64,000 nt of DNA from Glycera tridactyla (taxonomy: Eukaryota): assembly GCA_965644265.1 (NCBI GenBank), contig OZ286468.1, positions 50,592,001-50,656,000 of the forward strand, given 5' to 3'. The position numbers were made by a program, and so were the translations under genes. The notes beneath the pieces were generated by a model. The model made no database searches. It was not told the DNA's origin and saw nothing but the letters and a program-made list of their open reading frames with translations. Below, piece by piece: positions 39,101-56,400 of this stretch; the first letter of the stretch is position 1; each line of letters starts with the position of its first letter.

Positions 39101-40414
39101 TCCCGCCAGAGGGGCGATCACTATCTGCAACTCTGCTTACCTATCCAGTTTCGCGGCCACGTAATAGACGTACATCACGATAGTCTAATGGGATGCCATA
39201 GAGGCGCCCTGAAACTGTTAATGAGCCTACGAAATAAGTATTATTGGCCAAAGATGACTGCTGATGTGAAAGCATACGTACAGAGTTGTTTGACATGTGG
39301 AAGGGGTAAGAGACCTTATAATTCGTATAAGGCCCCATTGGAATTGCGCCAAATATTTCCTATTTGGTATCATGTCCATATGGACGTCCTGTCCCTTCCA
39401 GCAGACCCCTATACAGGACATACTAAATTGCTGGTGATGATAGACTCATTTTCATCTTATGTAAAATTGGCGGCGGTACCAAATGAGAAAGCAGAAACGT
39501 TAGCAAAGGCGTTCTTCAGAGAGTGGATATGTCGGCATGGTTGCCCAGTCATATTAACGACAGATAGGCACCAAAGTTTCAGAAGTATTCTTATGAAGAC
39601 CTTAGCATCACTCTTAGGATACAAGCGCATTTTTACGAGTAGTCATAGGCCTGAATCTAACGCAAAAGTGGAGAGAGTGAATAGTTCGATATTAGCAATG
39701 ATGAGAATGTTGGTTAGCAAGACCAAAGAATGGGTTCAATATCTGCCAGTAGTTAGGTTGAACCTAAACACTTCAACCTCTCAGACTTCAGGGTATACCC
39801 CTATGTTTTTGGCTACAGGGGTGGATACCTCGGTTGGGGAATATTGTCATTTGAGAGATCCAGAGATGTTGTCGGATAAGGATCAAGAGGTTCTGGAAGC
39901 TTTGTTACCAGAACTTACTTATCATCGAGAAATGGCCCGAAAGAACATAGAAATTTCTGCAAAGAGATATAAGGAGGTATATGAGAAACGATACCAAGTG
40001 GGTCAGATGCCTTTCAAAATCGGTGATCTTGTCTGGATGAAAACAGCCAGACCAGCGGGACAAGCAGTAGGAAAAACAGATAACCAACGTTTGGGCCCAT
40101 ATCGTATCACCGATACTCTTGGTGGGGTTTTGTATAAATTACAAGACTCACACACAAATATGTCTCTGGGGTCTCTTATACATGGCAATAAATTATCGTT
40201 GTTCCGAGACGAAGACGATAGCAGAATAAGGAACCTTTCTAAGGAACCTCCTGCGAATCCTAACCCTAGAGTATATGCAGATCCGGCCAAAAGAAATAGA
40301 ACCCAGGTCAAACACATAGCAAAAACTGTCTCCAAACCAGCGAATGTACCTAGAGTGCGCTTAACCGGGCCGGTTACAAGAAGACAAGCTGCGTTGAGGA
40401 ATATCAAGATATAA
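36191..40414 (+). CDS. pol: pol polyprotein (protease, RT, RNase H, integrase)
   Basis: Open from the gag TGA. PR: VDTGA. RT: YRACIDYRALN, LDMLSGYYQI, LPFGL, FLDD. RH: TDAS, KEAF, TTDN, DALSR. IN: HHCC (HHDSLMGCH...CLTC), HMDV...TTD-35-E, GPY. Confidence 0.97.
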   Translation, partial: WSTFTPPKTKTGDPSISFNDDVRLSLNLDGSFIRVMHNGMVARAPVDTGATASLISKNQWEQFNLESYLPIDGDKFLKLADASGKQIPILGQVEIPFEIAGREISVSLMVAEGLPVSMILGMEFLKNHRAIIDLEQGIVSFEGVPLIATIMPHIPIDRAIDVISTDHITIPPHTFMTVRLQVANKYWLSALFSSGYTGESDVESVQGFVVPSNNADIPVNLQLDPCLVTISKSGSLVVKVANSGDKPLEVKPSMTQARLTLDDDIEIIEASNVGGEVMAIMQMITSSQQTTVTVPPNYFNEEAFKENVLGLELRGDRVFEEIDWHEILDLSDCNKEQRRQLVDLLNANRDIFATSTEQLGKVTCVEHEINLEPDAKIVRQRPYRLSPEKQESLDKQIQELLAAKVIVESDSSWQSPVVMVKKKNHAPDGSVLYRACIDYRALNAMTQKEAGYFVMPTFDDIHESIARQAPRWMSSLDMLSGYYQIAMEKNSQDCTTFTTGKGSYKFLRLPFGLSLAPFTYSRAMSAALSRLGQTYVWNFLDDVFVASRTFKDHLVHLARVFNQFRQYGFTVHPRKCDFARKKLKFLGHIWTEKGLEPDPEKVKAIQKFPAPTNVTEVRRWLGLTGYYRKFIKNYAEIAEPITNLTRKDTPFLWDRKCQAAMDTLKTELLKNAVLHYPRLDREFFLTTDASKHSVSSILSQKDDDDVLRPVAFFSKKLNEQQRVWDINSKEAFSLILSIRLYRHLLGRQKINVTTDNLTARYLKNLRTSSAPKLLRWALEIQGLNIEIKHAPGKTIEAVDALSRIPEEKSIKTNYTKRDLGTPLDETIVMFVRTIGGDMPRAKTISQIANETRHTSDHRDAYTKQEVETSQKEAIVADENDNAQQDGESDEEVHAFLGPRLLEEQLKQFKADLHLVRDMQQESPDFKEMYYYLKFGTLPKESEKMKVVLRDHQHYILGAEDLLYRIFSTPGSRQRGDHYLQLCLPIQFRGHVIDVHHDSLMGCHRGALKLLMSLRNKYYWPKMTADVKAYVQSCLTCGRGKRPYNSYKAPLELRQIFPIWYHVHMDVLSLPADPYTGHTKLLVMIDSFSSYVKLAAVPNEKAETLAKAFFREWICRHGCPVILTTDRHQSFRSILMKTLASLLGYKRIFTSSHRPESNAKVERVNSSILAMMRMLVSKTKEWVQYLPVVRLNLNTSTSQTSGYTPMFLATGVDTSVGEYCHLRDPEMLSDKDQEVLEALLPELTYHREMARKNIEISAKRYKEVYEKRYQVGQMPFKIGDLVWMKTARPAGQAVGKTDNQRLGPYRITDTLGGVLYKLQDSHTNMSLGSLIHGNKLSLFRDEDDSRIRNLSKEPPANPNPRVYADPAKRNRTQVKHIAKTVSKPANVPRVRLTGPVTRRQAALRNIKI

Positions 40415-41141
40415 GTTAGTAGCGCCTCTGGAGGACCGTTGTATATATGCATATATATATATATCTATACATATATATATATGGCCAAGAATTTGCTTGA
40501 TATTCATACATGTCTCAATGTAGTCCCTAAACCCTAATTTGAGCTCATACCATCCCCAGGTAAGGGAATACTAATAGATGTATATAAATAACTGTGAAAT
40601 CGGATACTATGTATATGTAGACCATCGTACGATTCACAGTAACCTAGGGATGAGTGGTGTCCGCCATAAGGACATGTTAGGTGATAGCGATGACCAGAAG
40701 TCGAATGTAAGAGCTTTTACGGGTGTCTCTTGACATCTTCTTACATTTATGACTTGGCCACGGATGTGGGCCGGAATCAGTACGATGGGGATCGTGAAAG
40801 CCAACTGGATTCTCCGATGAGCTATTTTGTATTTATAATGTGAATGTATGTAAGGTACCTTAAAAATTATCTGTGATAAAAATCGACTAAGCGTTGGTCG
40901 TAGGCTCTGCCATCTGGAGTCTTAGGCTACTGAGCAAAAGATGTGACCGTAAACTCACCTTGTAGGGTGCTGCATGGTGAAACATCGATATCGTTCATGT
41001 ATCTCCAGAATCCATGATGCGTCTGGGGAGAGGCTCGTGGAAATATAAGGGAGTCCCGTGATTATAGGGAGGATAAGGTAGATAGATCCTTCTAGTATAT
41101 ACAAATATGTACACATACGACCCACGTAGTCCACAAATCCT

Positions 41142-41819
41142 TTACTCCTCAGATGGGGGTATCTCTCCTTCTTCTAGGCTGGGGAGAGATATGTTAGAGT
41201 CATCATCTTCCATTAGTAGAGGCATTGGAGGATCATGTCCCCAGGCTGGTGGGGGGAAGTTGGGCGAATGTGGCAAGGAATCGATACTAGGAGCAGGTGA
41301 CATATGTCCAGGGGACGGAGTATCTAGCATTGGAGGAGGATCGATGGTGATATCTGAAAAGGGTGATCCTTCTTCGGATCTCGGTTGAGCTGCTCTAGAA
41401 GAGGCAACGGATAACCTTCGAGGTCTGACGGTAATGGAAGACCTGGAGGGAGGAGTATCCGTTCTCCCGGGAGCGGGAGGCATCTCAGTCGAAGGTATCT
41501 CAGACAGTAGAGATATCACTCTTTGCAGATCTCTATGTTCCTCATAACGAAGAGGCACATCAAGAATCCTAGTGGTCGTTAGCAAGTGGTCTCCCAGTGA
41601 CCATAGAGTTGAGTGAATGGTATGATGAGGAGGCTGGGACTGATTATAAATGCTATGTCCCATAGGTGGTGCCCCTGATCCTTGTTGATTTAGGATCGCG
41701 ATGGTGATATCTGTCTCTGCCAGTACATCAATGCGGGAGATGCCATGATGGGTATCAAGATCCTGTAGGATGTAAACCAGACGATCCAGAATCGATTCCC
41801 GCGGTATCGCTTGCTCCAT
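41142..41819 (-). CDS. Antisense accessory ORF, 225 aa, unknown function
   Basis: ATG-initiated (ACTATGG) and confined to the pol-env spacer. The N-half looks helical; the C-half is Pro/Ser-rich and acidic. Confidence 0.6.
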   Translation of the reverse strand: MEQAIPRESILDRLVYILQDLDTHHGISRIDVLAETDITIAILNQQGSGAPPMGHSIYNQSQPPHHTIHSTLWSLGDHLLTTTRILDVPLRYEEHRDLQRVISLLSEIPSTEMPPAPGRTDTPPSRSSITVRPRRLSVASSRAAQPRSEEGSPFSDITIDPPPMLDTPSPGHMSPAPSIDSLPHSPNFPPPAWGHDPPMPLLMEDDDSNISLPSLEEGEIPPSEE

Positions 41820-42060
41820 AGTAAGGTTCCGTGAGAAAAGGGTGGTGTTTGTGTACGATAACTGTAGAAGAAATCGTGGACCTCAGCAGTTGGAATCTGG
41901 GATAAACTTCGAGTCAGACGGTTTCGGCCGGATCTCAGCTTATCTGAAAGGAGGATAGTAGAAACATATAGGAATGAGAGGGGCTAATAGTAAGGTTGTA
42001 ATGGTCATAGTCAGAGTATAAAAACCAGTTCGCCATTTTTGGTGTTGCAGAAGCCGAGAG

Positions 42061-45000
42061 ATGGCGCTGGTTTGGATAGTCACCCTTATGGCCCTATCCA
42101 ATTTGGATATTTCGAATATCAAAATGGAAGTTGATGGGGTTCTAGATACAGTAAGTAGACCTAATTATGGTGTGAGTTTTCAACCTTTGAAAACCTTATA
42201 TCCAGCTTCTTCTAGTTGGACACATATCTTTCGAGTAGATATACCTCCTGAAGTTAGCAGACAGCTATTCAGAGATGTAGAAACGACATGCTCGGACCAA
42301 CACTGTACTGATAACCACTCTTTAGATAGATTTCTAAGAAGATTTCAGCGCCAAATGGTAAGAGATGCGAACAAAGTTCGAACCGCCATTTTGGACCTTA
42401 CTTCTCAGAATCTGACTAACGATAATAGTAGGAATAAGCGTGAAGTCACAGCTTCGTATGTGAACTGGAGTAGCTATGGGCGTTATACTCAGACCTATCA
42501 GGGTTATGCAGTCAACTATCATGCGTGTATGAAAAAGAATATAAATGATATCGATGAAGATATCATAACTCCTGGCACTCAAAAACGTCTGGTCTGTTCC
42601 AGACGAGCTGCCAGAGATGCATGTGAAAATAATAGACCTGATTGTATAAAGGAATTTGATAGAAAGTGTCCAGATCCACAATGTTCGTCCTTAATGGACA
42701 AGTGGGGACAGGGGAAACGCACCAGACGCTCTGTCCAGGATAGGAAAGCCCAACGAGCCCCAGAACCACCAATTCTGGGAAATATCACCAAAAAGGACTT
42801 ATTTGAGGTCAAAAATATTTTGGATCATAAATTAGCCCAATATAACCATTATTTAGAATTAGCGGTACAAGTAGATGTACAACTGGGTGAAATGAGTGAA
42901 ATGATTCAAGAGTACTTACCTATAGTGAAGAGTAATGACAGGGTGAAGAGATGGAATCCGTTTGCTTGGATAGGGAAACACGTGTTCGGACTGTCTACCA
43001 ACGAGGATGTTGAGAGACTGGCTAGGGTGGTGAAGTTTGCTACGGACCAGCAACTCACAGAGGCAAGGCGTTTCACTAAATTCCAAAGTGAAACTGCTTC
43101 ATTTATGGATGTTTTATCCCAACGATTTACCAACGTGGCAGGGACCATTTCAGCACTGCAAACGGAGTTGCAGGGACAGCTGCAGGACCTGTCCCATCAC
43201 GTGGATGACCGCCTCTGGAGGGTGATGCAGTACAGCATTAGTTCCAGTTCAGTGCTTGCAAGCATGATAGAAAAAATGCAAACACTGAGTCCCCAGATCG
43301 ACCACCTAATGTCAGCAGTAAATGATTTAGTACAAGGAAAGTTAAGTCCTTATCTAGTGAACCATACAGTCCTGACAGATACTATCTCGATCCTGCAAGA
43401 GCAAATGAGACGAGACTATCCATATTTTCATCTCACGGAGTTATCTCCACAGTTTTATTATCGATATGGTCGAGTGAATTATTTCCGGACCAATGAGGAA
43501 TATTTGATGGTATCTTTAGATTTTCCATTGTCAGCATTGACAAAGGACTTTAGGCTGTATTCAGTGACCATCCACAATACTCCCATTACTGATGATTCTA
43601 CTCAGACTAGTCGTCTAAAAACCCCTGTCGAATACTTTGGAGTATCTGATGATAGTATGAATTACATTGAAATGACTCATAAAGAGTTAGCTAGGTGTGA
43701 TGATACGACTGCCTTCAGATGCTCATCATCTATGAAAATATTTGATATGGACAAACCAACCTGTATGGCAGCCATTTTTCAAGATGATTCCAGTTTAGTA
43801 AAGGAACTATGTGGTTTCAGATTTGAGAAAACTGAGCCTGTAGTAGACTTGGTAGATGTTGGAAACGGTGAGGTGTTGGTACATAACGCTGAGAGTATCT
43901 TTCAACATTGTGGGGCGGAGTTGCCCCGGCAACGAGAAGGATGCGTATACTGCCAAATGGAATTACCATGCGGTTGTACGATTCATATATCTAATAAGAT
44001 CTCAGCAGCAGCCTTACCGGCTCGTATAAATAACTGTGTGAGGAAATCATCTGGGCTTACTATCGTACATCCAATCAATCTTGCTGCCTTATCACATATT
44101 TATGATTTAAAGAATATTGAAGAGGTGAATGGCGAGACCCTGTATAGTGAGAAGTGGCTACCGAAATTACCAGAAATCAAAGTAAGTAAGGACTTTGAAT
44201 TGAATTTGAATCGAGATTACAATTATTCAATGCAATTGGCCTCTGTGATGAAACGGGCTAAGGAAGGGCTGGATGTTGATCCTATCAAGCAAGTTGCCGC
44301 TAGTACGTGGGATCTGGATTCAGCTGATGAGTTCTTCACACTTTCGAATGTGTTAGGATTGCTCAGTATTCTGGTAGCCATTGCCTCCATGGGTCTGGCC
44401 ATTTACACAAGATGGTCATATCGTCTGCTAGAAAAGACGATGAGTGCATATACGTTAGCCGGTGTGTTACAACCTACAACTGTAGATGGGCTGGAGGACC
44501 TCCCTAGGGACGTCTATGAACGTCTATTAGGACGGGCCATTCCAACCACTTCAAAAAGTAGGATCCCTCATATTGATGGTTTCCAAGTAGATACCTTTGC
44601 TCAGGACATGTGTTACGAAGGTAAGCATGTCGGGGTAGTAGGTGTATTGGCGCTTCTGGCCGTGGTGGGACTATTGGTCATAATAGGCTATTTAGCGTAC
44701 ACGATGTATGCTCACCGCTGCCGGACAAGAAGTAAGCTGATCATAGAGTTAGGAAACCTAGTAGAATACCAGGATATAACTATCATGAAACTTCCTGGAT
44801 CCATGTCAAATTATCATTTGATGGGACTAGGTGTCCCGGGGCCTTATCAGGTCAAGGACTTCCGATGCAGGTCATATTTGACTGCCTCATGGAGAGGTTT
44901 GATTGTAGGGAACAGAATGGGTAATACACCTTTACCCATGCCTGAACAATTGAGACTACTTCCATGGGAGGCTCTGAAAGTCAAACGTATTCTACAAGGT

Positions 45001-45279
45001 CGCTTTACTGCTGTATTTAAGATTGAGATGGGATGTAAGTTCTATATCATTCCAAGAATCTGCCAACCGGATTGTGACGGTTGGGCATGTAAGGGGATAT
45101 ACAACCCAGAGATAACCCCTAATATACTATACCCTGCTATGGACCAGACCCCTAAGAATGCTATTGATAGTGCAAACATTCCTCTACTAGCCTCAGCTCC
45201 TGGAAATGGGATTGACAAATATGAGTTGCAAAACGATGGTAGGAAAGTGAATTCTCAAAGTGAGATCACTAGAATGTAA
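42061..45279 (+). CDS. env: env-like class I fusion glycoprotein (baculovirus F/errantivirus Env-like), 1072 aa
   Basis: Hydrophobic N-terminus. RVKR followed by fusion-peptide-like WNPFAWIGKHVFGLSTNED. Heptad segment, GKLSPYLV motif, Cys-rich ectodomain and N-glycosylation sequons. TM segments at aa ~764-782 and ~857-883. Confidence 0.88.
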   Translation: MALVWIVTLMALSNLDISNIKMEVDGVLDTVSRPNYGVSFQPLKTLYPASSSWTHIFRVDIPPEVSRQLFRDVETTCSDQHCTDNHSLDRFLRRFQRQMVRDANKVRTAILDLTSQNLTNDNSRNKREVTASYVNWSSYGRYTQTYQGYAVNYHACMKKNINDIDEDIITPGTQKRLVCSRRAARDACENNRPDCIKEFDRKCPDPQCSSLMDKWGQGKRTRRSVQDRKAQRAPEPPILGNITKKDLFEVKNILDHKLAQYNHYLELAVQVDVQLGEMSEMIQEYLPIVKSNDRVKRWNPFAWIGKHVFGLSTNEDVERLARVVKFATDQQLTEARRFTKFQSETASFMDVLSQRFTNVAGTISALQTELQGQLQDLSHHVDDRLWRVMQYSISSSSVLASMIEKMQTLSPQIDHLMSAVNDLVQGKLSPYLVNHTVLTDTISILQEQMRRDYPYFHLTELSPQFYYRYGRVNYFRTNEEYLMVSLDFPLSALTKDFRLYSVTIHNTPITDDSTQTSRLKTPVEYFGVSDDSMNYIEMTHKELARCDDTTAFRCSSSMKIFDMDKPTCMAAIFQDDSSLVKELCGFRFEKTEPVVDLVDVGNGEVLVHNAESIFQHCGAELPRQREGCVYCQMELPCGCTIHISNKISAAALPARINNCVRKSSGLTIVHPINLAALSHIYDLKNIEEVNGETLYSEKWLPKLPEIKVSKDFELNLNRDYNYSMQLASVMKRAKEGLDVDPIKQVAASTWDLDSADEFFTLSNVLGLLSILVAIASMGLAIYTRWSYRLLEKTMSAYTLAGVLQPTTVDGLEDLPRDVYERLLGRAIPTTSKSRIPHIDGFQVDTFAQDMCYEGKHVGVVGVLALLAVVGLLVIIGYLAYTMYAHRCRTRSKLIIELGNLVEYQDITIMKLPGSMSNYHLMGLGVPGPYQVKDFRCRSYLTASWRGLIVGNRMGNTPLPMPEQLRLLPWEALKVKRILQGRFTAVFKIEMGCKFYIIPRICQPDCDGWACKGIYNPEITPNILYPAMDQTPKNAIDSANIPLLASAPGNGIDKYELQNDGRKVNSQSEITRM

Positions 45280-47128
45280 TAGCGACTCACAAAACGTAAT
45301 ACGATTATACTTATGTCTCTTCTTTAAGTAATCCCGTCTCAGGAACTCTTATAGTTCGCAATAGAACCAATCTTGAGACCATGCGTAAGTGGGGAGACCT
45401 TATGAACGATGCAGATGATTGTTGACTCAGAATAAGAATATTCGACCTGTCTTCTTAGACTATGTCACCAAGGCCATGTACCCGACAATAATGGCGGAGC
45501 TTCGTATGTATGAGTGAGTCAGGGAGCCTTGCGTATTTTTGGCGGGAAAGTTTGAATGGGGAAACCAGCAGTATCAGTTATACGGAGCCCTGTTGTAAGC
45601 TACACCCCAGGACTTGATTTGAAGTTAGGTCATAAAGACCGTGGCTGTACTACTGATTCCCGTATTTGTGGCGAGAAAGGTGTATGGTACGATTGTGTGC
45701 GCAAATGGGAAGGATGTCCTTACCGCAATATGTCTTTTTCGACTTAACGTTTGTAGCACCCTATCAACCCTATTGTACCGAGGGAAATTTTTGATAGGGT
45801 ACTACATTGTAGTGAGGATTGATGTTATATTGTATTAGGGATGTGTTAGATATAGGTATCTTCTGGGTCTTTTATAAAATTGTTTTGAATCTATTTTTGC
45901 TATAAAAACTGTGAGGTGATACAAAGTGATAGACCTGTTGGTTTCATGATGTTTTCTTGGTGTGTACGGTTATTAACTGGTATGTTCATTTGCTTGAGTT
46001 CCAGGGACAGATGATGGACTGTATGTCAGGAGAACTACGATTCGGTCCCTGGACCTCGCAAATGGACGTGCTGGTGGTGCATATCGGGGTGACACATGGA
46101 TATTGGATACCAAAAATTTAGGATATCACTGTATCACCAGGAGATAAGAGCAGTGGGATAGTTCACCCTAGCTTAGCTGAGCAGAGACTAGTAGATAGGG
46201 AATCATGGGGAACTATTCCGGACGATGTATATATACTGCCTCGATGATTCTTGTATCGCGATACCTTGTCTGTATGAAACCCAGCCTAGGAGAGGCTGAA
46301 GATGGTGAACTCTAATGCAATCGCCATGAAAAACACTTGACTTTGACTGAATGGTCGGAATCTGACTATCAGTATGAATCATGGGTTTCCATGTGGGACC
46401 CCGGAGGAGATGATGTGTTGTATTGAGTCATTGTTGCTTAATTTCCCTGGACGGGTGTATGAACACATGCTAGGGGCATGGGTGTCTAATGGACACGCCT
46501 ATGGGCGTGAAGTGTAGACATAAACCGGTGGAAAGGACATGTTTATGAGAGATGTTGGAAATGGACCGTGTCGTCATAAAAAGGGGGCGTGGTCGACTTG
46601 TGACCTGTCTTCATTGTACTTGCCTGACGTGGCGATGCAGTTGATGTCTTGATTTGATGTAGTAAATGTTGTGATTTCTCTTATCGGTACGATTATCTTT
46701 CACTCGCTTTTTGTCTCTCTCTCTATTTCTGCGGTCTTTCTATTATTCTTGTTTCTACTTGGAAGGCCATTGGCATCTGTGTCACCTATCCTAACAAAAA
46801 CCCAGTTTGCGGTTTGATAACATTTCGATTACGTTGAGGTTGATATGCATGTTAGGGATGAATGGAGCTGTAGCCGGATACGCGATTCCTCGAGACTGCC
46901 AATCTTTTGGTTATTTCGTATCTAGTCTCTTAAATATGTATTTTGACCACACTATCGTTATGTCGATTGGAGGAAATCATATTTCTTTGGTTTTGATAGA
47001 GACGCAGAGCGTCTTCGAGATGTATATCTCATTTATGCCATGGGAAACCGACTGGAACGAAAAACAATCGCAGTTGAGGAATAACGCATCCCAGTGAGGG
47101 AATTAGGCGTTACTAATTCCAAAACCGC

Positions 47129-47729
47129 TCACGAGATGGCGCGACAGTTGAAAGGTCAACGTCAGGTCAACTCTGTGAAACCAGCATATAGTCATTTCAA
47201 TCGCAATTAAAAACTAGTTAGCGAGTCATATGAGAAACATAGGTACAAGATAGAGTAACCAAAATGCGTAGTTTTTCATGAAGAATACGTCGACTATGAT
47301 GAAACCCAGAACTGACGATGCTGAGTGTAGGGAAAAATCAGGATAGTGAAAAATCATTTTTGGGCATACGACCGGGGATAGGCTTGGAGTATCATAGTAT
47401 GAAGGTGGAGATTAAGCAGAGAAGGGTCATACATTCTGACCATGTATCATACTCCGGGCTAGAGATGCGTGTCAATGATTGCCATACACAATGAGTGTAC
47501 TGCACTCGTTTCTGGTGGCATTCTCCTCATCAATCTCTTCCATTAGTTCGGAGAATTGATGCGCCGGTGAAACCACCTTCTCTTCTTCCTCCTCCTTCTT
47601 CCTCCTTCTTCTCCTGGCCGGTTTTTACCGGCCAAATAAATCAAAAGAAACATGCAACCAAAAACCAAGCAATATCCTGTAAACCAAAGTTAGGCACGCC
47701 TAGTTCTGGGAAACCCCGCTAGATGGCGA
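47129..47729 (+). promoter_or_regulatory. Two CTCF-like motifs in the element's 3' region
   Basis: CCGCTAGATGGCGA at 47716-47729 is a close fit to the CTCF core. TCACGAGATGGCGC at 47129-47142 is a weaker fit. Confidence 0.4.
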
Positions 47730-48881
47730 ATAGATCTACGACGGCCATTTTTGTAGAATTCTCTGAAGATAGACTTTTAGTCAAGGTATAAAGAGGAATA
47801 TTTCTGTCAAAAATGGGCCGATTACTTTGAAACAAATATTAAAATTTGACATTTCGAAAGGGGAATCAGAAGAAATGAAGTAATAAGTATATTCTCTCTA
47901 AGGATCACCGAAAATACTTAGAATCGAGAATTTCCGGTGGATTGTCAAAACCCCAAATAGACGAAGGCTGAGTCTTATAAGGGTTGGAGAGGAAAGCAAC
48001 GGAGGCATACTTCCTGGGTATCAACCTCTGTAGTTTGCACAAGGGAGGAACCACCATGCTGGGGGGGATCCAGATTCCTTTCAGGTTGGTGGGGACCTTT
48101 CTTCACTACGGTACGGTTTGATGCTGACTCAGAGAGTGCTGGTGTCACAGCCTTGGAGACTCCTGGCTACCTGGTTGAACGTAGTTCGATTGGGTGGTGC
48201 ACAGGCTGACTCCTGGGTGTCTTTTTTGTAAAAAGGACAGTGCTTACCAGCGACTCCTGAAATTCAGTCCTTCGTCCACAGATCCCTGCTTTCCTCTTGC
48301 TTCCTTTCCCCCTCCTTCCTCTCCCCGGCCGATTTTTATCGGCCAAATAATCAATGAAAAATGCTCTAAGAGAGGGAGACCCATCGAGTCTCCCTCATAA
48401 GGCACTATCGGCAGCGGCAGAGCTGAATGGTATCAGTTCCGAATTCGCACACGGGGTGGCGTTGCGATTGGAGTCGATCTCGCCAAGTGACCTAGTTCTT
48501 CTGTACCAAACCGACTGGCATAATGGCTTTGCAATGTATAACTTCTTAAATCCGCAAGCCGGTCAGACGATTCCTGTATGAAAACTCGATAATAGTTGTG
48601 GTTGATGATTTTTGTATGTTGTTTGGATTGTTTGAGACCTTCAATCGCCAAAAATGGTGCAAGAAGTTGGGGGACCGGTAGTGCATGTCCCCGGCAATGG
48701 GTTTATAACCTATGCCTATGAAGGTTGAAGAGGGTTCCGGACTGGTCATACTTGTTTTACCAGTATCACTCTGTTTCATGAGAGTTGGATGGATGTTCAC
48801 CGTGGAAGTGTCGGTGAATGTCTCGTTCAGATTTACGAGAAACAGAGTGATACTCAACCCCTGGTTGGTTTTTACCAACCA
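47615..48881. other. Three homologous tetraloop hairpins
   Basis: TGGCCGGT-TTTT-ACCGGCCA (47615-47634), GGCCGAT-TTTT-ATCGGCC (48327-48344), TGGTTGGT-TTTT-ACCAACCA (48862-48881). Confidence 0.75.
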
Positions 48882-49563
48882 AAATGGCCAAAATAAATGC
48901 CTGGTAAATGTGGAGGAGACTTTCACCGACACTTCCACGCCAAGGCATCTAATGGTCTTAAGGGGGACAAAGAACCAAAAATGGAACTGTGTTATATCAT
49001 GTATGTAATAAGTTGTGCGAGCTTTGTTGGTTATTTTCGATGCGAAATGTCAAAAGGTTACGTTCGGCCTTGTCTGGATGAAGACCTGATTCGCCAGGCA
49101 AGAGCGGGATGAAAGCCAGAGACATATCTAGTTGGTATTAGAATTGTACAATACGAGATGTGTGAAGAAATAAGTAGATGCCGGTCTCCACTATGGAGGC
49201 GCGGACGTGTACGAAAGCATTCTCGAACTCATGCTGCGACTGACAGAGACGGCCGCTAGTAACAACCGGTCGAGCTATTTAGCGCAAGTAGCGCGAGAAA
49301 TGAGGGAAGCCAGTGGAAGCCGTTGGGCGCGAAATTCGAAAGTCGGATTGGGAGACAATAACTCCTCGTGGTGACCCTGCTTCACTAGCCATTTGGTTCG
49401 GTCAGGGGCGCTCAGTAAGTCTGCGACTAGTCAGAAATAACATCATTTTTCGAGGACCTCTCTATACGATTGGATCCACTTTTAATGACTGGTTGTAGAT
49501 GGCTGGACGTCTTTGGCTGGATTGGCTGGATGGGACCTGGAAGCTACGAGGACGTTAGCTTCT

Positions 49564-49575
49564 AAAGAAGAGATG
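49564..49575 (+). promoter_or_regulatory. Polypurine tract
   Basis: AAAGAAGAGATG lies immediately upstream of the 3' LTR. Confidence 0.75.
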
Positions 49576-50376
49576 TATATCTCAAATCGATTATATTAAC
49601 TATAACTGAACTCGTGAAAGTCACATCTGTGTCGCACGAGTAAGCCATTTTATGACCCCATAAATTAGGGCGCTTGACGCCTCGGGCTATAAAAATGGAA
49701 TGAAGGACAGATAATCTGATCCAGGGGATAAGAAGCCCCGTCTCCTGTATTAGCCATGAGCCATTAACTTTTACTGCCCCTCGCTCTTGGGATTACTCAC
49801 GGCCATTACTCTGAGTAATGGGACCCAAGAAGCGAGCCACTTGGATTGACCCTCGCCTTAAGGCAAAGATATCTTAATGGAAAATTCTCATGAAAGACAT
49901 GAATGTCAGATAGCACTGAGTTATGAGGGGTGAGCTAGTGCGAACCCCGCTTTTCTAGATCCATGTGCATCATAAAAATACCATAAAATAACCATAAAGT
50001 GCATGAGCGTGTAATCCCATGGTAATGACTTGTGAGCCTGAAACATATAAATACGTGGGAGAAGGAAGCACCGTCAGACCATTCCTTGAGCTGGGTCCAC
50101 GCTGGTCGAGTGTGCACTTCATGGGCTGACGGACTTCTTTCCCCACAGTATTACATCGTAGTATTTATACTATGTCTGCCTGATGTATACTGGGGAATAA
50201 ATGTTAAACTGGAACTCCACGTCGTTGACTTATTTGTGGCAACCCCTGCTACTGGTCACAACGAGAGAAGGGATCCCACCATCTCACACTGACATTGTAA
50301 AGCCAAGCGACATCACGCAGAAGGAACGACATCTTCAAGCGACATCCCTCCTATAGTCGAATGAATCTTTGATATA
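49576..50376 (+). repeat. 3' LTR
   Basis: Direct repeat of the 5' LTR (offset 16454). AATAAA at 50196-50201. Confidence 0.95.
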
Positions 50377-52097: not shown

Positions 52098-52446
52098 TCA
52101 TACAGCATCAAAAACAAAACTGGAGAAAGTTTCTAGTCAATACCCAAAGTCAGGCAGCAACAACAAAACATTTGGAATATTTTAGGTCATACAGCAGCAA
52201 CAACAAAACATGGGGAATATTTCTAGTCAACACCCAAGGTCATACAGCAGCAAAATTAAAACATTGAGTATATTTCCATTCAACACCCAAGGTCATACTG
52301 CAGCAAAATCAAAACATTGAGTATATTTCCAGTCAACACCCAAGGTCATACTGCAGCAAAATTAAAACATTGAGTATATTTCTAGTCAACACCCAAGGTC
52401 ATACAATAGCAACAACAAAACATTATGAATATTTCTATTCAACATC
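52098..52446. repeat. Tandem array, ~53-bp unit, about 6 copies
   Basis: The unit is approximately TTTCTAGTCAACACCCAAGGTCATACAGCAGCAAAATTAAAACATTGAGTATA. Confidence 0.9.
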
Positions 52447-54849
52447 CATCGCCATCGTCATCACTCTGTTCTTCATTTTCTTTGGTTTCTTCCTCCACCA
52501 TCACTAACACCAGCATCATCCACATCATTGGTAAAGGTCAAGATGATTAGTGTTGTTTTATCATCTTTGCTTCCATTACCCGTGACTCTATATACCCCAT
52601 TTCCTACTCTATACTGACTACTAGGCCATAGCATCTCCTATGCAAGGGAGATCATGGGCAATTTATCTAAAGCCATTTCATCTCTACATTAGATGGCGTG
52701 GCTAGGAAGAGAGGATCATCACAAAAGACGGAATTGCCTCTGCCAAAGGTCAAGGACATTGTGTGCTCCAATGAATTGCCAATGAACTTAACTCAACTTA
52801 TGTATCAAAATATACACTCCTGCAGACCATCGTGATCTTCATTCCTCCCTTCCAGACTGCTCTCCCAGCTTTTTCATCTGTCTGACCTTCATGTATATTC
52901 CGTACATTGAGATTCTCAAGCAGCAACGACGTACAGGGCAACTGTGAATAAGTATAATGAAGAAAAAGCCTGTTTCGATTATTGGTGTGATTGAATGTGT
53001 GGGTGAATTTCTGTACATCCTGGAACCCCTTGTATGCACAGCCTGGGTGGCTTTATTGCCAAGTATGATTCAACAATGCCTCCACCGTGAGACAGTAGTC
53101 CCAAACCATTATTACTTCGTGGAGAGGCCAGTGCATTAGTGAGTGAAGTAGGAGTCATGATGGGCAAGCCTGTGATGAGTGTTTGCTCATTACATGGCCA
53201 ATATACCTGCAGCCAGCAACTGCTGATCTACAGCCCAGATCTACAGCTCCCATTCAGTGAGTCTACTGGTTAGAGTGACTCCTAGTGGTATCTCATGAAT
53301 ACAACAGGCCAAATCGTGAAATTTCACAAGCCATGACGATGATCTCGCAGTGAATCAGATGATCAGATAATTTATCCTGCACTGGCCATGCAATAATGTT
53401 TGTACTTTATCATGCACACATGGTGATGATAATGATCTATCAAGTTGGATATTTCGTATCGATTGCAGGAAGGCACTTGGAATTATATTCCATATTGACC
53501 CAGATTCCCATGGTAGTGATATTGTCGGAAAGTGGGAGTCAACTCACCGCAAGTACCACCTTGTGCCAATACATTGAAATACACTTGTGGAAACATCCGA
53601 GACTAAATGCTGTTATTTTCTATACCAAAGCCTACAAAGCCTACGATACTGCAAATGCTATTCAGACAATCGGCATCTGGATTTGATCTTTGCTCTGATA
53701 TTCTTTGTCTGGTGATATTTGTATCAAAATTCGTGGAGTCTTGTAGATTTGTGTAATGTCCAGATGGCGACACCTTCACTGCTCATATAATCTAGTTTTT
53801 GGCAGGAACACGTCCCACTCTCGTGTGTCCACTTGTCGGTATTACTCATACCATCACTTAGCTAAGCTGTGTTCTAATGAACAGTTTTTCTCCAAATGAT
53901 ACGCCTAGGAAAATAAGCTTTTGCCTTCCCAGTCTAACTTGTCGAGACTTGGAATCTCTGATTAGGCTACAGGGTATTTCATTTTCGGCAGGAGATCTAA
54001 AAGGCATACTGGCCAATTGAGAGTAGTGCTCAGTGGCACACGTCTTGTGTATGTCTGAAAAAATTGACAATACCATCTGTTGAAATTTGAGTGTCCATTA
54101 TTTCCGATATGAGGGAGAGATCCTGCAAAGAAGAGTTTTTTGCAGAATGGGAGTGTTGTATGATTCTTGAAAGAAGAAGATGTCCATCTCCAGCATAGGT
54201 ATACTAACGATGTGAAATTGCGAAACGCACTCGCTAGCTTCGAGTCTAACGGACTGGAGGTGTGCAACAGTGTGCCAATTCTTGAAAGGCCCAACCCGAA
54301 TGCGATCGGTGAGGCGCTTACAAGCTGAACTCTCTGATCATATGTGCGCACGTACGCACGTGCGGGGGACACTCACTCTCACACACGCGCACGCTACTAT
54401 TGTGGCCACCGCGTGCTCCAACCAAGCGCAGTTCGCTTTTTAGACTCCATACTGCATCGCGACTTTCCCAAAGGCTGGCAACGTCCACCGGAGTGATCAA
54501 ACTCATATGTCCCACACACCCTCCGTCTTGAAAGGACGTATTTGTGAATCGTCACGCATTCGCGGCTTGTAGCTTGCATGCGTCACACAGTGTGGGTGTG
54601 GCGGTGCGGGTGTGTCTGTCTAGGTGTGGTGTGGTGTCATGGAATCGACACGCTTGCCCAGCGCCTGGAGTACGTATATGGTTATCATAAGTGTGTGTCT
54701 ATTGGAGTACGCTTTAACACAGTTGGTAACTGCGGAAAACGCCGCCTATTACAGCAAGTAAGTCATTATTCTGGTGAATATGTACCAAAGAAATGTCCCT
54801 ATCCCTCTTCTAAACATCTTCGACGAAAAAGTATTTCGAACATGGTTCT

Positions 54850-56400
54850 GCGAGTCATTCATTTGATGAATGTCCACAATGAAGACAGAGTGTTTTCAAC
54901 CAGTGTTTGTCAGTCACCATTTGATAAATCTCCACAATGAAGATCAAATGATGACTGACACTTTTCAACCAGTGTTTGTCAGTCACCATTTGATAAATCT
55001 CCACAATGAAGACAGAGTGTTTTCAACCAGCGTTTGTCAGTCATCATTGATAAATCACAATGAAGATCAAATGATGACTGACAGTTTTCAACCAGTGTTT
55101 GTCAGTCACCATTTGATAAATCTCCACAATGAAGACAGAGTGTTTTCAACCAGTGTTTGTCAGTCATCATTTAATAAATCTCCACGATGAAGACAGAGTG
55201 TTTTCAACGAGTGTTTGTCAGTCACCATTTGATAAATCTCCACAATGAAGACAGAGTGTTCTTAACCAGTGTTTGTCAGTCACCATTTGATAAATCTCCA
55301 CAATGAAGACAGAGTTTTTTTCAACCAGTGTTTGTCAGTCATCATTGATAAATCACAATGAAGATCAAAAAATGACTGACAGTTTTCAACCAGTGTTTGT
55401 TAGTCATCATTTGATAAATCTCTACAATGAAGACAGAGTGTTTTCGACCAGTGTTTGTCAGTCACTATTTTGATAAATCTCCACAATGACGACAGAGTGT
55501 TTTCGACCAGTGTTTGTCAGTTACTATTTTGATAAATCTCCACAATGAAGACCAAGTGTTTTCAACCAGTGTTTGTCAGTCACTATTTTGATAAATCTCC
55601 ACAATGAAGACAGAGTGTTTCCAACCAGTGTTTGTCAGTCATCATTTGATAAATCTCCACAATAAAGACAGAGTGTTTTCAACCAGTATTTGTCAGTCAT
55701 CATTTGATAAATCTCCACAATGAAGACAGAGTGTTTTCAACCAGTGTTTGTCAGTCATCATTTGATATATCTCCACAATATAGATCAAATGATGACTGAC
55801 GGTTTTCAATCAGTGTAGCCTGCCTTGGTGCCTCAGTGGTAGTATGCTGGGCCGGCGTGCAATGGGTCTGGGGTTCAATCCCCGATCCTACCATGAAGGA
55901 ACGTTTCACCCTTCATCTTCGCTCCTCCTTGGCAGGTGGTCTGATTCAGCCTACTCAAGTGCAGAAAATGGACCTGAAACCTCAACATTTCCATTACAAC
56001 CTGTGTTTGTCAGTCATCCATTTGATAAATCTCCACAATGAAGAGAGACTTTCAACATGTATTGTGAGTCACTCATCTGATATATTACCTAAATGAAGAG
56101 CGACATTTTTGAACCAGGATCTGTGAGTCATTCATTCGATGAACCTCCCTGATGAAGAGATGCTTTATTTAACCAGTATTTGTCAGTCATTTATTCGATG
56201 AAGAAAGAATATTTCCTCCACTTTATGTGGGTCAATCATTTGATAAATCTACAAAATGAAGATTTTTTCAACTAATGTTTGTGAGTCATTTATTTGATGA
56301 ATTTCCGCAATGAAGAGAGAGTTTTCAACCACTTTGTGTGAGTCACTCATTTTATATAATTGCACGATGAATACACACGAATTCAACGAGATGATTGTGT
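54850..56400. repeat. Tandem array, 58-bp unit (about 16 copies before the SINE and about 7 decayed copies after)
   Basis: Unit GATAAATCTCCACAATGAAGACAGAGTGTTTTCAACCAGTGTTTGTCAGTCACCATTT, contiguous with no unique spacers. Confidence 0.95.
55818..55994 (+). mobile_element. tRNA-derived SINE inserted in the 58-bp array
   Basis: A and B boxes are present. Same family as 22648-22824. Flanked by CAATCAGTGT and CAACCTGTGT, a possible TSD of the array sequence CAACCAGTGT. Confidence 0.8.

Follow-up and report, generated by a model that had tools for sequence, protein, structure and literature searches.

The 3′ region of a Ty3/gypsy element of Glycera tridactyla carries an RNA module with two predicted alternative folds, both of them long rods built around one common strand, and comparison among copies and between families gives good support to the view that this pair of folds is real and selected. 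The module lies in a window of 64,000 nt (GCA_965644265.1, contig OZ286468.1, positions 50,592,001 to 50,656,000 of the forward strand), and the positions given below are those of the window unless a locus is named. The original prediction had read two long crossing stems either as a pseudoknot or as two alternative folds making up a potential RNA switch. The second reading, that of a predicted switch, is supported by the conservation of both stems, and the pseudoknot is not favoured as a stable state. We suggest, with a probability of about 0.4, that the two-rod module may act as a gate on the handling of the element RNA, setting export and translation against dimerisation and packaging.

The host is a Ty3/gypsy LTR element of ~17 kb on the plus strand (33124–50376) in a genome of 2.04 Gb. 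Two LTRs of ~800 bp (~33124–33922 and ~49574–50376, with 793 of 799 bases identical) enclose, all on the plus strand, a gag region (34492–36190) with an interrupted reading frame, pol (36191–40414) and an env-like ORF of 1085 codons (42022–45279). Pfam domains for gag, zinc knuckle, protease, RT, RNase H and integrase follow each other in Ty3/gypsy order, and the two LTRs, gag and the pol order protease-RT-RNase H-integrase place the element in that group. The 1085-residue env-like product, which has basic cleavage-like motifs and hydrophobic stretches, is env-like by eye; it gave no Pfam match above the cut-off and no PDB sequence match, and one unnamed relative was found. It is a candidate for the F- or gB-type fusion protein that a third ORF encodes in errantivirus-like elements. 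The LTRs end in TAT...ATA and not TG...CA (33124, 33922, 49574 and 50376), and no clear target duplication was found at the element ends. Between the env-like ORF and the 3′ LTR lies a 3′ region of 4.3 kb without long plus-strand ORFs, and the module stands in it ~635 nt upstream of the LTR start at ~49574, in agreement with the ~640 nt given originally.

Several further features of the locus were recorded. Several copies show an RT-to-module distance greater by about one element length, which suggests nesting. An antisense ORF of 246 codons (41142–41882, minus strand) lies between pol and env; it has no Pfam match and no atlas match, and it is possibly an undescribed accessory gene. Relatives of it, likewise as antisense frames, occur in the sister family (32%, E 8e-30) and, less strongly matched, in four of the six distant families. 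A Rev/RRE-like pairing of the module with this ORF was rejected, because four of the six families without the module have relatives of the ORF. The pol-env gap of 1.6 kb exceeds the 1000-nt limit that the accessible part of a recent survey gives, so such elements would be missed there (PMC13524379). Outside the element, tandem arrays occupy 54800–56370 (~58-nt units) and 52184–52500 (53-nt units).

Two predicted folds around one strand

A (48762–48777) pairs with A′ (48839–48854) at 16 of 16 positions and B (48801–48824) with B′ (48916–48939) at 23 of 24, exactly as described originally, and the order A-B-A′-B′ is likewise correct, so that the stems cross in sequence order as those of an H-type pseudoknot do. 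The pairing of B with its cis-antisense arm extends to 39 nt at 87% (B′ then spanning 48901–48939). With 16 and 18 bp, A/A′ and B/B′ contain the two longest perfect inverted repeats with arms at most 400 nt apart in the whole 17 kb of the element; among 300 dinucleotide shuffles of the whole element, a perfect repeat of at least 16 bp appeared once and one of at least 18 bp never. The folding z values of the two hairpins are −8.5 and −10.1, respectively.

According to predicted folding, A/A′ forms the basal stem of a hairpin of 93 nt, rod 1 (48762–48854, ~39 bp). In its upper stem the A-B linker (48778–48800) pairs with the 3′ part of B (48819–48839), and the first ~18 nt of B (48801–48818) are looped out, with 9 nt open at the apex in the window copy and ~18 nt in diverged copies and in the sister modules. 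Rod 2 is the B/B′ hairpin, in which the 5′ part of B forms a perfect duplex with B′ and the 3′ part of B, a partner of the linker in rod 1, pairs with B′ instead, so that bases also taken by the rod-1 upper stem are used and A′ comes to lie within the loop. Since the full folds share 48810–48839, rods 1 and 2 are mutually exclusive. Hairpin 3 (48862–48881; 8 bp, U-rich loop) is part of both folds. It had been placed at the centre of a 140-nt rod; the B/B′ stem of that proposal stands but the continuous rod does not, as a stem of 36–39 bp closes a 61-nt loop with hairpin 3 at its side. The 7-bp hairpin ascribed to B itself exists as well, but it is the top of the longer A/A′-based hairpin and is conserved only in part, its three inner pairs being kept in 17, 31 and 34 of 39 copies and in 3–6 of 17 more diverged ones.

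Smaller elements surround these stems, all on the plus strand. An upstream CATACT (48747–48752) may pair with the initial 5 nt of A when the rod-2 state sets A free; the five pairs are present in 39 of 39 copies and almost invariant, and the motif also precedes A in sister modules 1 and 2. In the rod-1 state, a weak self-fold of B′ is possible (48910–48916 with 48932–48938). Hairpins 1 and 2 (47615–47634 and 48326–48345) are paralogues of hairpin 3, with double changes; a pyrimidine tract precedes and an A-rich stretch follows each of the three, with AATAAA in two of them. A small hairpin at 48821–48840 was rejected because 20 of 39 copies have an A·C there. HDV-like, hammerhead and hairpin ribozymes were also rejected on a comparison of core motifs, given the lack of an Rfam match and the A·C in the inner hairpin of those 20 copies.

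The predicted energy gap between the folds is small: over 31 distinct copies, rod 2 is favoured by +2.0 ± 3.3 kcal/mol, with single values between −4.2 and +10.9. For the growing transcript, rod 1 is predicted to have a probability of ~0.9 or more until B′ is almost complete, and the direct refolding path from rod 1 to rod 2 has a predicted barrier of up to 50 kcal/mol. Two conserved folds, a common strand and similar energy, as expected of a bistable switch, are by prediction and comparison all found here; such a switch would also have both states populated and tied to an output. Near-equal energies alone are weak evidence, since it is common in these 3′ regions for one segment to have two predicted partners of about equal strength, and the case rests on conservation and repetition.

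As to conservation, a DNA search for the family yielded 83 candidates, of which 40 were scored, all being matches of 92–100% identity, and 39 copies were aligned (30 loci including the window, and those 9 of 20 further loci in which the region was covered and belonged to the window's family). Both stems are kept in 39 of 39, whereas conservation of one stem or neither in other copies had been named beforehand as the outcome that would count against the prediction. For A/A′, 621 of 624 cells are paired and there is a single double change (48776/48840, in six copies); for extended B/B′ the figure is 1349 of 1521, where a cell counts a sequence and not an event. Most of the B/B′ mismatches are accounted for by 48806/48934 together with four fixed positions, and five positions show double changes. 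The 19 pairs of the rod-1 upper stem below the variable top are paired in 719 of 741 cells, mainly with exchange between Watson-Crick and G·U pairs. Thirteen more diverged loci (14 module matches, 78–90% identical to the window over the module) also keep both stems, the A core and part of B being invariant there by construction because the search pattern demanded them. Pattern searches of the genome returned 2793 matches against 2184 for the control in the loose form, which is a lead only, and 77 against 4 in a tighter one.

The changes in B/B′ are of the kind expected of RNA. In 17 family sequences, 7 of 34 B/B′ pairs are changed on both sides, and none of 500 shuffles, which ignore relatedness, had as high a percentage paired and covariation score. 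Counted by position, G·U outnumbers A·C by 5 to 0 in A/A′, 12 to 5 in B/B′ and 12 to 2 in the rod-1 upper stem. Taken together, the double changes in B/B′ and the large excess of G·U over A·C mismatches argue for pairing of the plus-strand RNA and not for a one-off scar. Covariation of rod 1 within the family did not go beyond shuffles (69 and 27 of 500); rod 1 draws its support from conservation, the G·U bias and the sister modules. Three copies carry a triple change, 48822 with 48792 and 48918, that is consistent with both folds; the 48792 change stands uncompensated in four other copies. Of 14 copies tested, 12 had their two rods left equally stable in no more than 1 of 60 trials in which the same substitutions were placed randomly; the other two, L021 and L049, were no better than random placement (7 and 19 of 60 trials). 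One family copy is without most of the module; its deletion junction is spanned by 1 of 40 scored matches, namely itself, and this singleton status fits a requirement for the module, without being proof of one.

A replicated and rearranged module in the sister family

A search by RT retrieved a larger sister family, with 96% RT identity and an env ~72% identical in DNA, in which blastn aligned the 3′ region with that of the window family over just two short blocks. Each of the 13 copies examined has three modules per element and two antisense arms, one of them upstream. Module 1 has the order A-B-A′-hairpin-B′. In module 2, B′ is found 460 nt upstream, which gives B′-A-B-A′, and the stems still cross. 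Module 3 adjoins module 2 at a distance of 5 nt and has its own wobble-rich A; it is without a well-matched B′ (−37 to −43 versus −52 to −64 kcal/mol), and its match to the upstream B′ is poorer. Counterparts of hairpin 3 follow modules 1 and 3. At L041 and L110 (G000:C7 ~70.24 Mb), a sister copy has lost the greater part of env together with the first half of its 3′ region and retains all three modules.

The rod-1 fold recurs in each sister module, where the linker differs and the loop region measures ~18 nt, so that rod 1 is seen four times with different linkers, at z values of −3.5 to −8.5. Across both families, 14 of 38 B/B′ pairs and, between the families, 2 of 13 A/A′ pairs are changed on both sides. 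For these B/B′ pairs, too, none of 500 shuffles reached the observed percentage paired and covariation score. The unbroken run of B/B′ stops at pair 17–18 in all three B/B′ pairs, which is the boundary of the rod-1 loop. Rod 1 is favoured in sister module 1 by 0–14 kcal/mol, and self-folding of the sister B′ arms is predicted to be possible.

The module has a narrow distribution. A model of it gave no match at E up to 1 in a distant sample of 20 loci from six env-bearing families (RT identity 76–88% in the five with RT fetched), and with filters off the best hit in six distant loci, at E 0.15, lay outside the 3′ region of the element. The absence from six related families means that the module is not a universal need; lineage-specific gain is known for export elements, as the accessible parts of the sources report (PMC4588558, PMC11379458). 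A motif scan of viral contigs gave 21 matches, none of which the model confirmed, and no relatives of env were found in viral contigs. The four hits of an Rfam scan of the 3′ region were all sub-threshold.

Other signals were noted in these 3′ regions. A block at 45963–46075 (~45 nt, 77–95% identical over matches of 39–109 nt) recurs in the sister family and, among the six distant families, in five, within 3′ regions that otherwise do not align. It resembles a 3′ splice acceptor, with a branch-like motif, a U-rich tract and TTYCAG, and lies within a two-part stem whose partner strand changes along with it; no long ORF follows it, and metagenomes gave 0 matches. For a core 3′ signal, this clade-wide block (45963–46010) is a better candidate than the two-rod module. 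A short hairpin (49541–49586), just 5′ of the purine tract and the LTR, is common to the sister and four distant families. The 3′ region of a family without the module holds two adjoining, precursor-like hairpins of 31–33 bp with small loops (L059, 3455–3585). CTCF-like motifs occur in the 3′ region of the sister (L031, 4990 and 5600) and in the window at ~47716.

Readings of the two-rod module

How could two such rods work as a gate? During transcription rod 1 is predicted to form first, with the 5′ end of B shown in its loop. B′, perfectly complementary to just that loop, would dock there and zip on through the shared strand, so that rod 1 melts, the loop is buried in rod 2, and A and A′ are freed. 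Rod 1 would thus be a kinetic trap released by docking of B′, with a short-lived pseudoknot on the way. Given the high refolding barrier, the step would presumably require a helicase or a chaperone, for which the zinc-knuckle nucleocapsid of the element is a candidate. A protein or a second copy of the genome might distinguish the loop-shown from the loop-buried state, and the loop of one RNA together with the B′ of another might form a dimer link. Bacterial antisense pairs (RNAI/RNAII, CopA/CopT and hok/sok) use a loop toehold followed by zipping, and a co-transcriptional metastable fold; unlike in these pairs, the antisense arm of the module is within the same RNA, and the host is an animal retroelement.

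Retroviruses offer several systems for comparison, which we take from the accessible parts of the sources. The usual place of their export elements is between env and the 3′ LTR (PMC4588558), and the musD MTE and the CTE, RTE and DR elements are, like the module, structured, non-coding, upstream of the 3′ LTR and equipped with crossing (tertiary) pairings (PMC4588558, PMC11379458). The module differs from them in having no sequence or Rfam match, in consisting of two long alternative rods that share a strand, and in its invertebrate-type Ty3/gypsy host. Dimerisation switches of MLV and HIV expose or bury protein sites, and in HIV SL1, MLV SL-A/B and ALV L3 a loop contact likewise leads to strand exchange into a long duplex, in a chaperone-dependent way and with sequence exposed or buried (PMC5874298). 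Those loops are self-complementary and lie at the 5′ end, whereas in the module loop and partner differ, the location is the 3′ end, and pairing within one molecule is possible. The module is therefore not a dimer initiation site of the retroviral type, being at the 3′ end with B′, not itself, as the partner of its loop, and the 5′ position of known dimer signals counts against the gate. Crossing or long-range pairings needed by the RNA are also described for the Ty1 5′ pseudoknot with CYC5/CYC3 and for the bipartite PBS of Ty3 (PMC4974528). In contrast to Ty1 and Ty3, our element showed in its 5′ region nothing complementary to A, A′, B or B′ that stood out clearly from shuffled controls, and 5′-3′ cyclisation was rejected, three of the four segments doing no better than shuffles and A′ being marginal (−19.3 versus −18.9 for the best control). 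Pairing with host U2 snRNA was rejected too, the best value (−14.8 kcal/mol) belonging to one sister arm and not being common to the others.

The main rival of the gate, and less likely than it, is small-RNA output, either with rod 1 as a microRNA-like precursor and B′ as an antisense guard restraining the cutting of the genome RNA, or with rod 2 being diced. Drosha prefers a stem of ~35 bp and a loop of at least 10 nt; rod 1 has the shape of a pri-microRNA so defined, and all four of its versions (86–95 nt, 33–39 predicted pairs, ~35-nt 3′ arm) are close to this preference. In the sister family, moreover, three rod-1 hairpins are clustered, with modules 2 and 3 only 5 nt apart, and the module is lineage-restricted as viral microRNAs are. 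On the other hand, the putative seeds differ among modules and vary within the family (48825, 48830, 48831 and 48806), the optional pri-microRNA motifs, basal UG and downstream CNNC, are by eye not consistently placed, and a loop of 61 nt (or 460 nt) speaks against dicing of rod 2. The likeness of one loop variant to the miR-34 seed was rejected, as the base concerned is A, U or C among copies. There is a precedent in ALV-J, where the accessible text describes a microRNA made by the canonical pathway from the 148-nt non-coding hairpin of E(XSR), which is of similar size and belongs to a retrovirus-type genome; no antisense arm or second fold is described there, and the small RNA of our module is hypothetical (PMC3911700).

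It is unlikely that a single rod, rod 2 or rod 1, is functional as a long duplex for dsRNA-binding, localisation or editing proteins, the other being an intermediate or a leftover. Covariation within the family is clear in rod 2 and lacking for rod 1, and sister module 3 retains rod 1 without a good B′, both of which would suit this view; both rods are nevertheless maintained in the same copies. In low-depth contigs from two runs, a weak test, the stem changes were all seen in genomic copies too and so gave no sign of editing; the two contig sets, presumed to be RNA, held 5–7% of words and are not counted as evidence of expression.

A stable pseudoknot, in which A/A′ and the B/B′ core stand together as a tertiary export-type element, appears improbable. 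It would find a parallel in the musD MTE, which according to the accessible text requires a pseudoknot and a kissing contact (PMC4588558); the crossing order survives the relocation of B′ upstream, and A/A′ and the B core have no common bases. But beyond A/A′ the same fold pairs the linker with the 3′ half of B (the 719 of 741 cells given above). The very segment that a pseudoknot would need to lead across B/B′ is thus conserved as the partner of B, and it has just ~9–23 nt. Stems of more than one turn would need a linker wound along the helix, and stems of 1.5 and 3.5 turns on linkers of 9–23 nt should be sterically hard to hold together, so that on geometric grounds a lasting pseudoknot of a 16-bp and a 24–39-bp stem with short linkers is unlikely.

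The neutral reading, by which inverted copies were made and homogenised by template switching in reverse transcription, is largely refuted: the spacing of 61 nt between the arms in both repeats fits it, B′ must once have arisen as an inverted copy of B, and copying from arm to arm is able to mimic double changes, yet such copying would leave perfect arms and favour neither strand. The stems observed retain G·U while avoiding A·C, their fixed mismatches persist, and the design has outlasted the loss of alignment in its flanks. A template switch, which had been offered as an alternative origin, may thus account for how B′ arose and leaves its upkeep unexplained.

A bolder and less likely reading takes the hairpin with its built-in antisense arm as a modular device of retrovirus-like elements that was duplicated and circularly rearranged between families, and which might serve as a heterotypic 3′ dimer link, with the loop of one genome zipped to the B′ of the other, or as a refolding-throttled, microRNA-like cluster that spares the genome RNA. 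In the literature covered, mainly open-access and mostly by listing, we found no published description of such a module, which as far as searched is undescribed. In the accessible sources, almost no cis-acting RNA structure is described for env-carrying Ty3/gypsy elements outside flies, and the main text of the recent survey, as accessible, does not contain the terms 'UTR', 'untranslated', 'stem-loop' or 'secondary structure' (PMC13524379). The module is small (~200 nt), naturally replicated and permuted, and makes a clear prediction of two rods and a loop toehold, which lends it to a direct in vitro test. If the proposal is true, it would be a comparatively supported RNA switch of an animal, and would illustrate how a retrovirus-like RNA may use its 3′ end to time or ration a decision on its fate.
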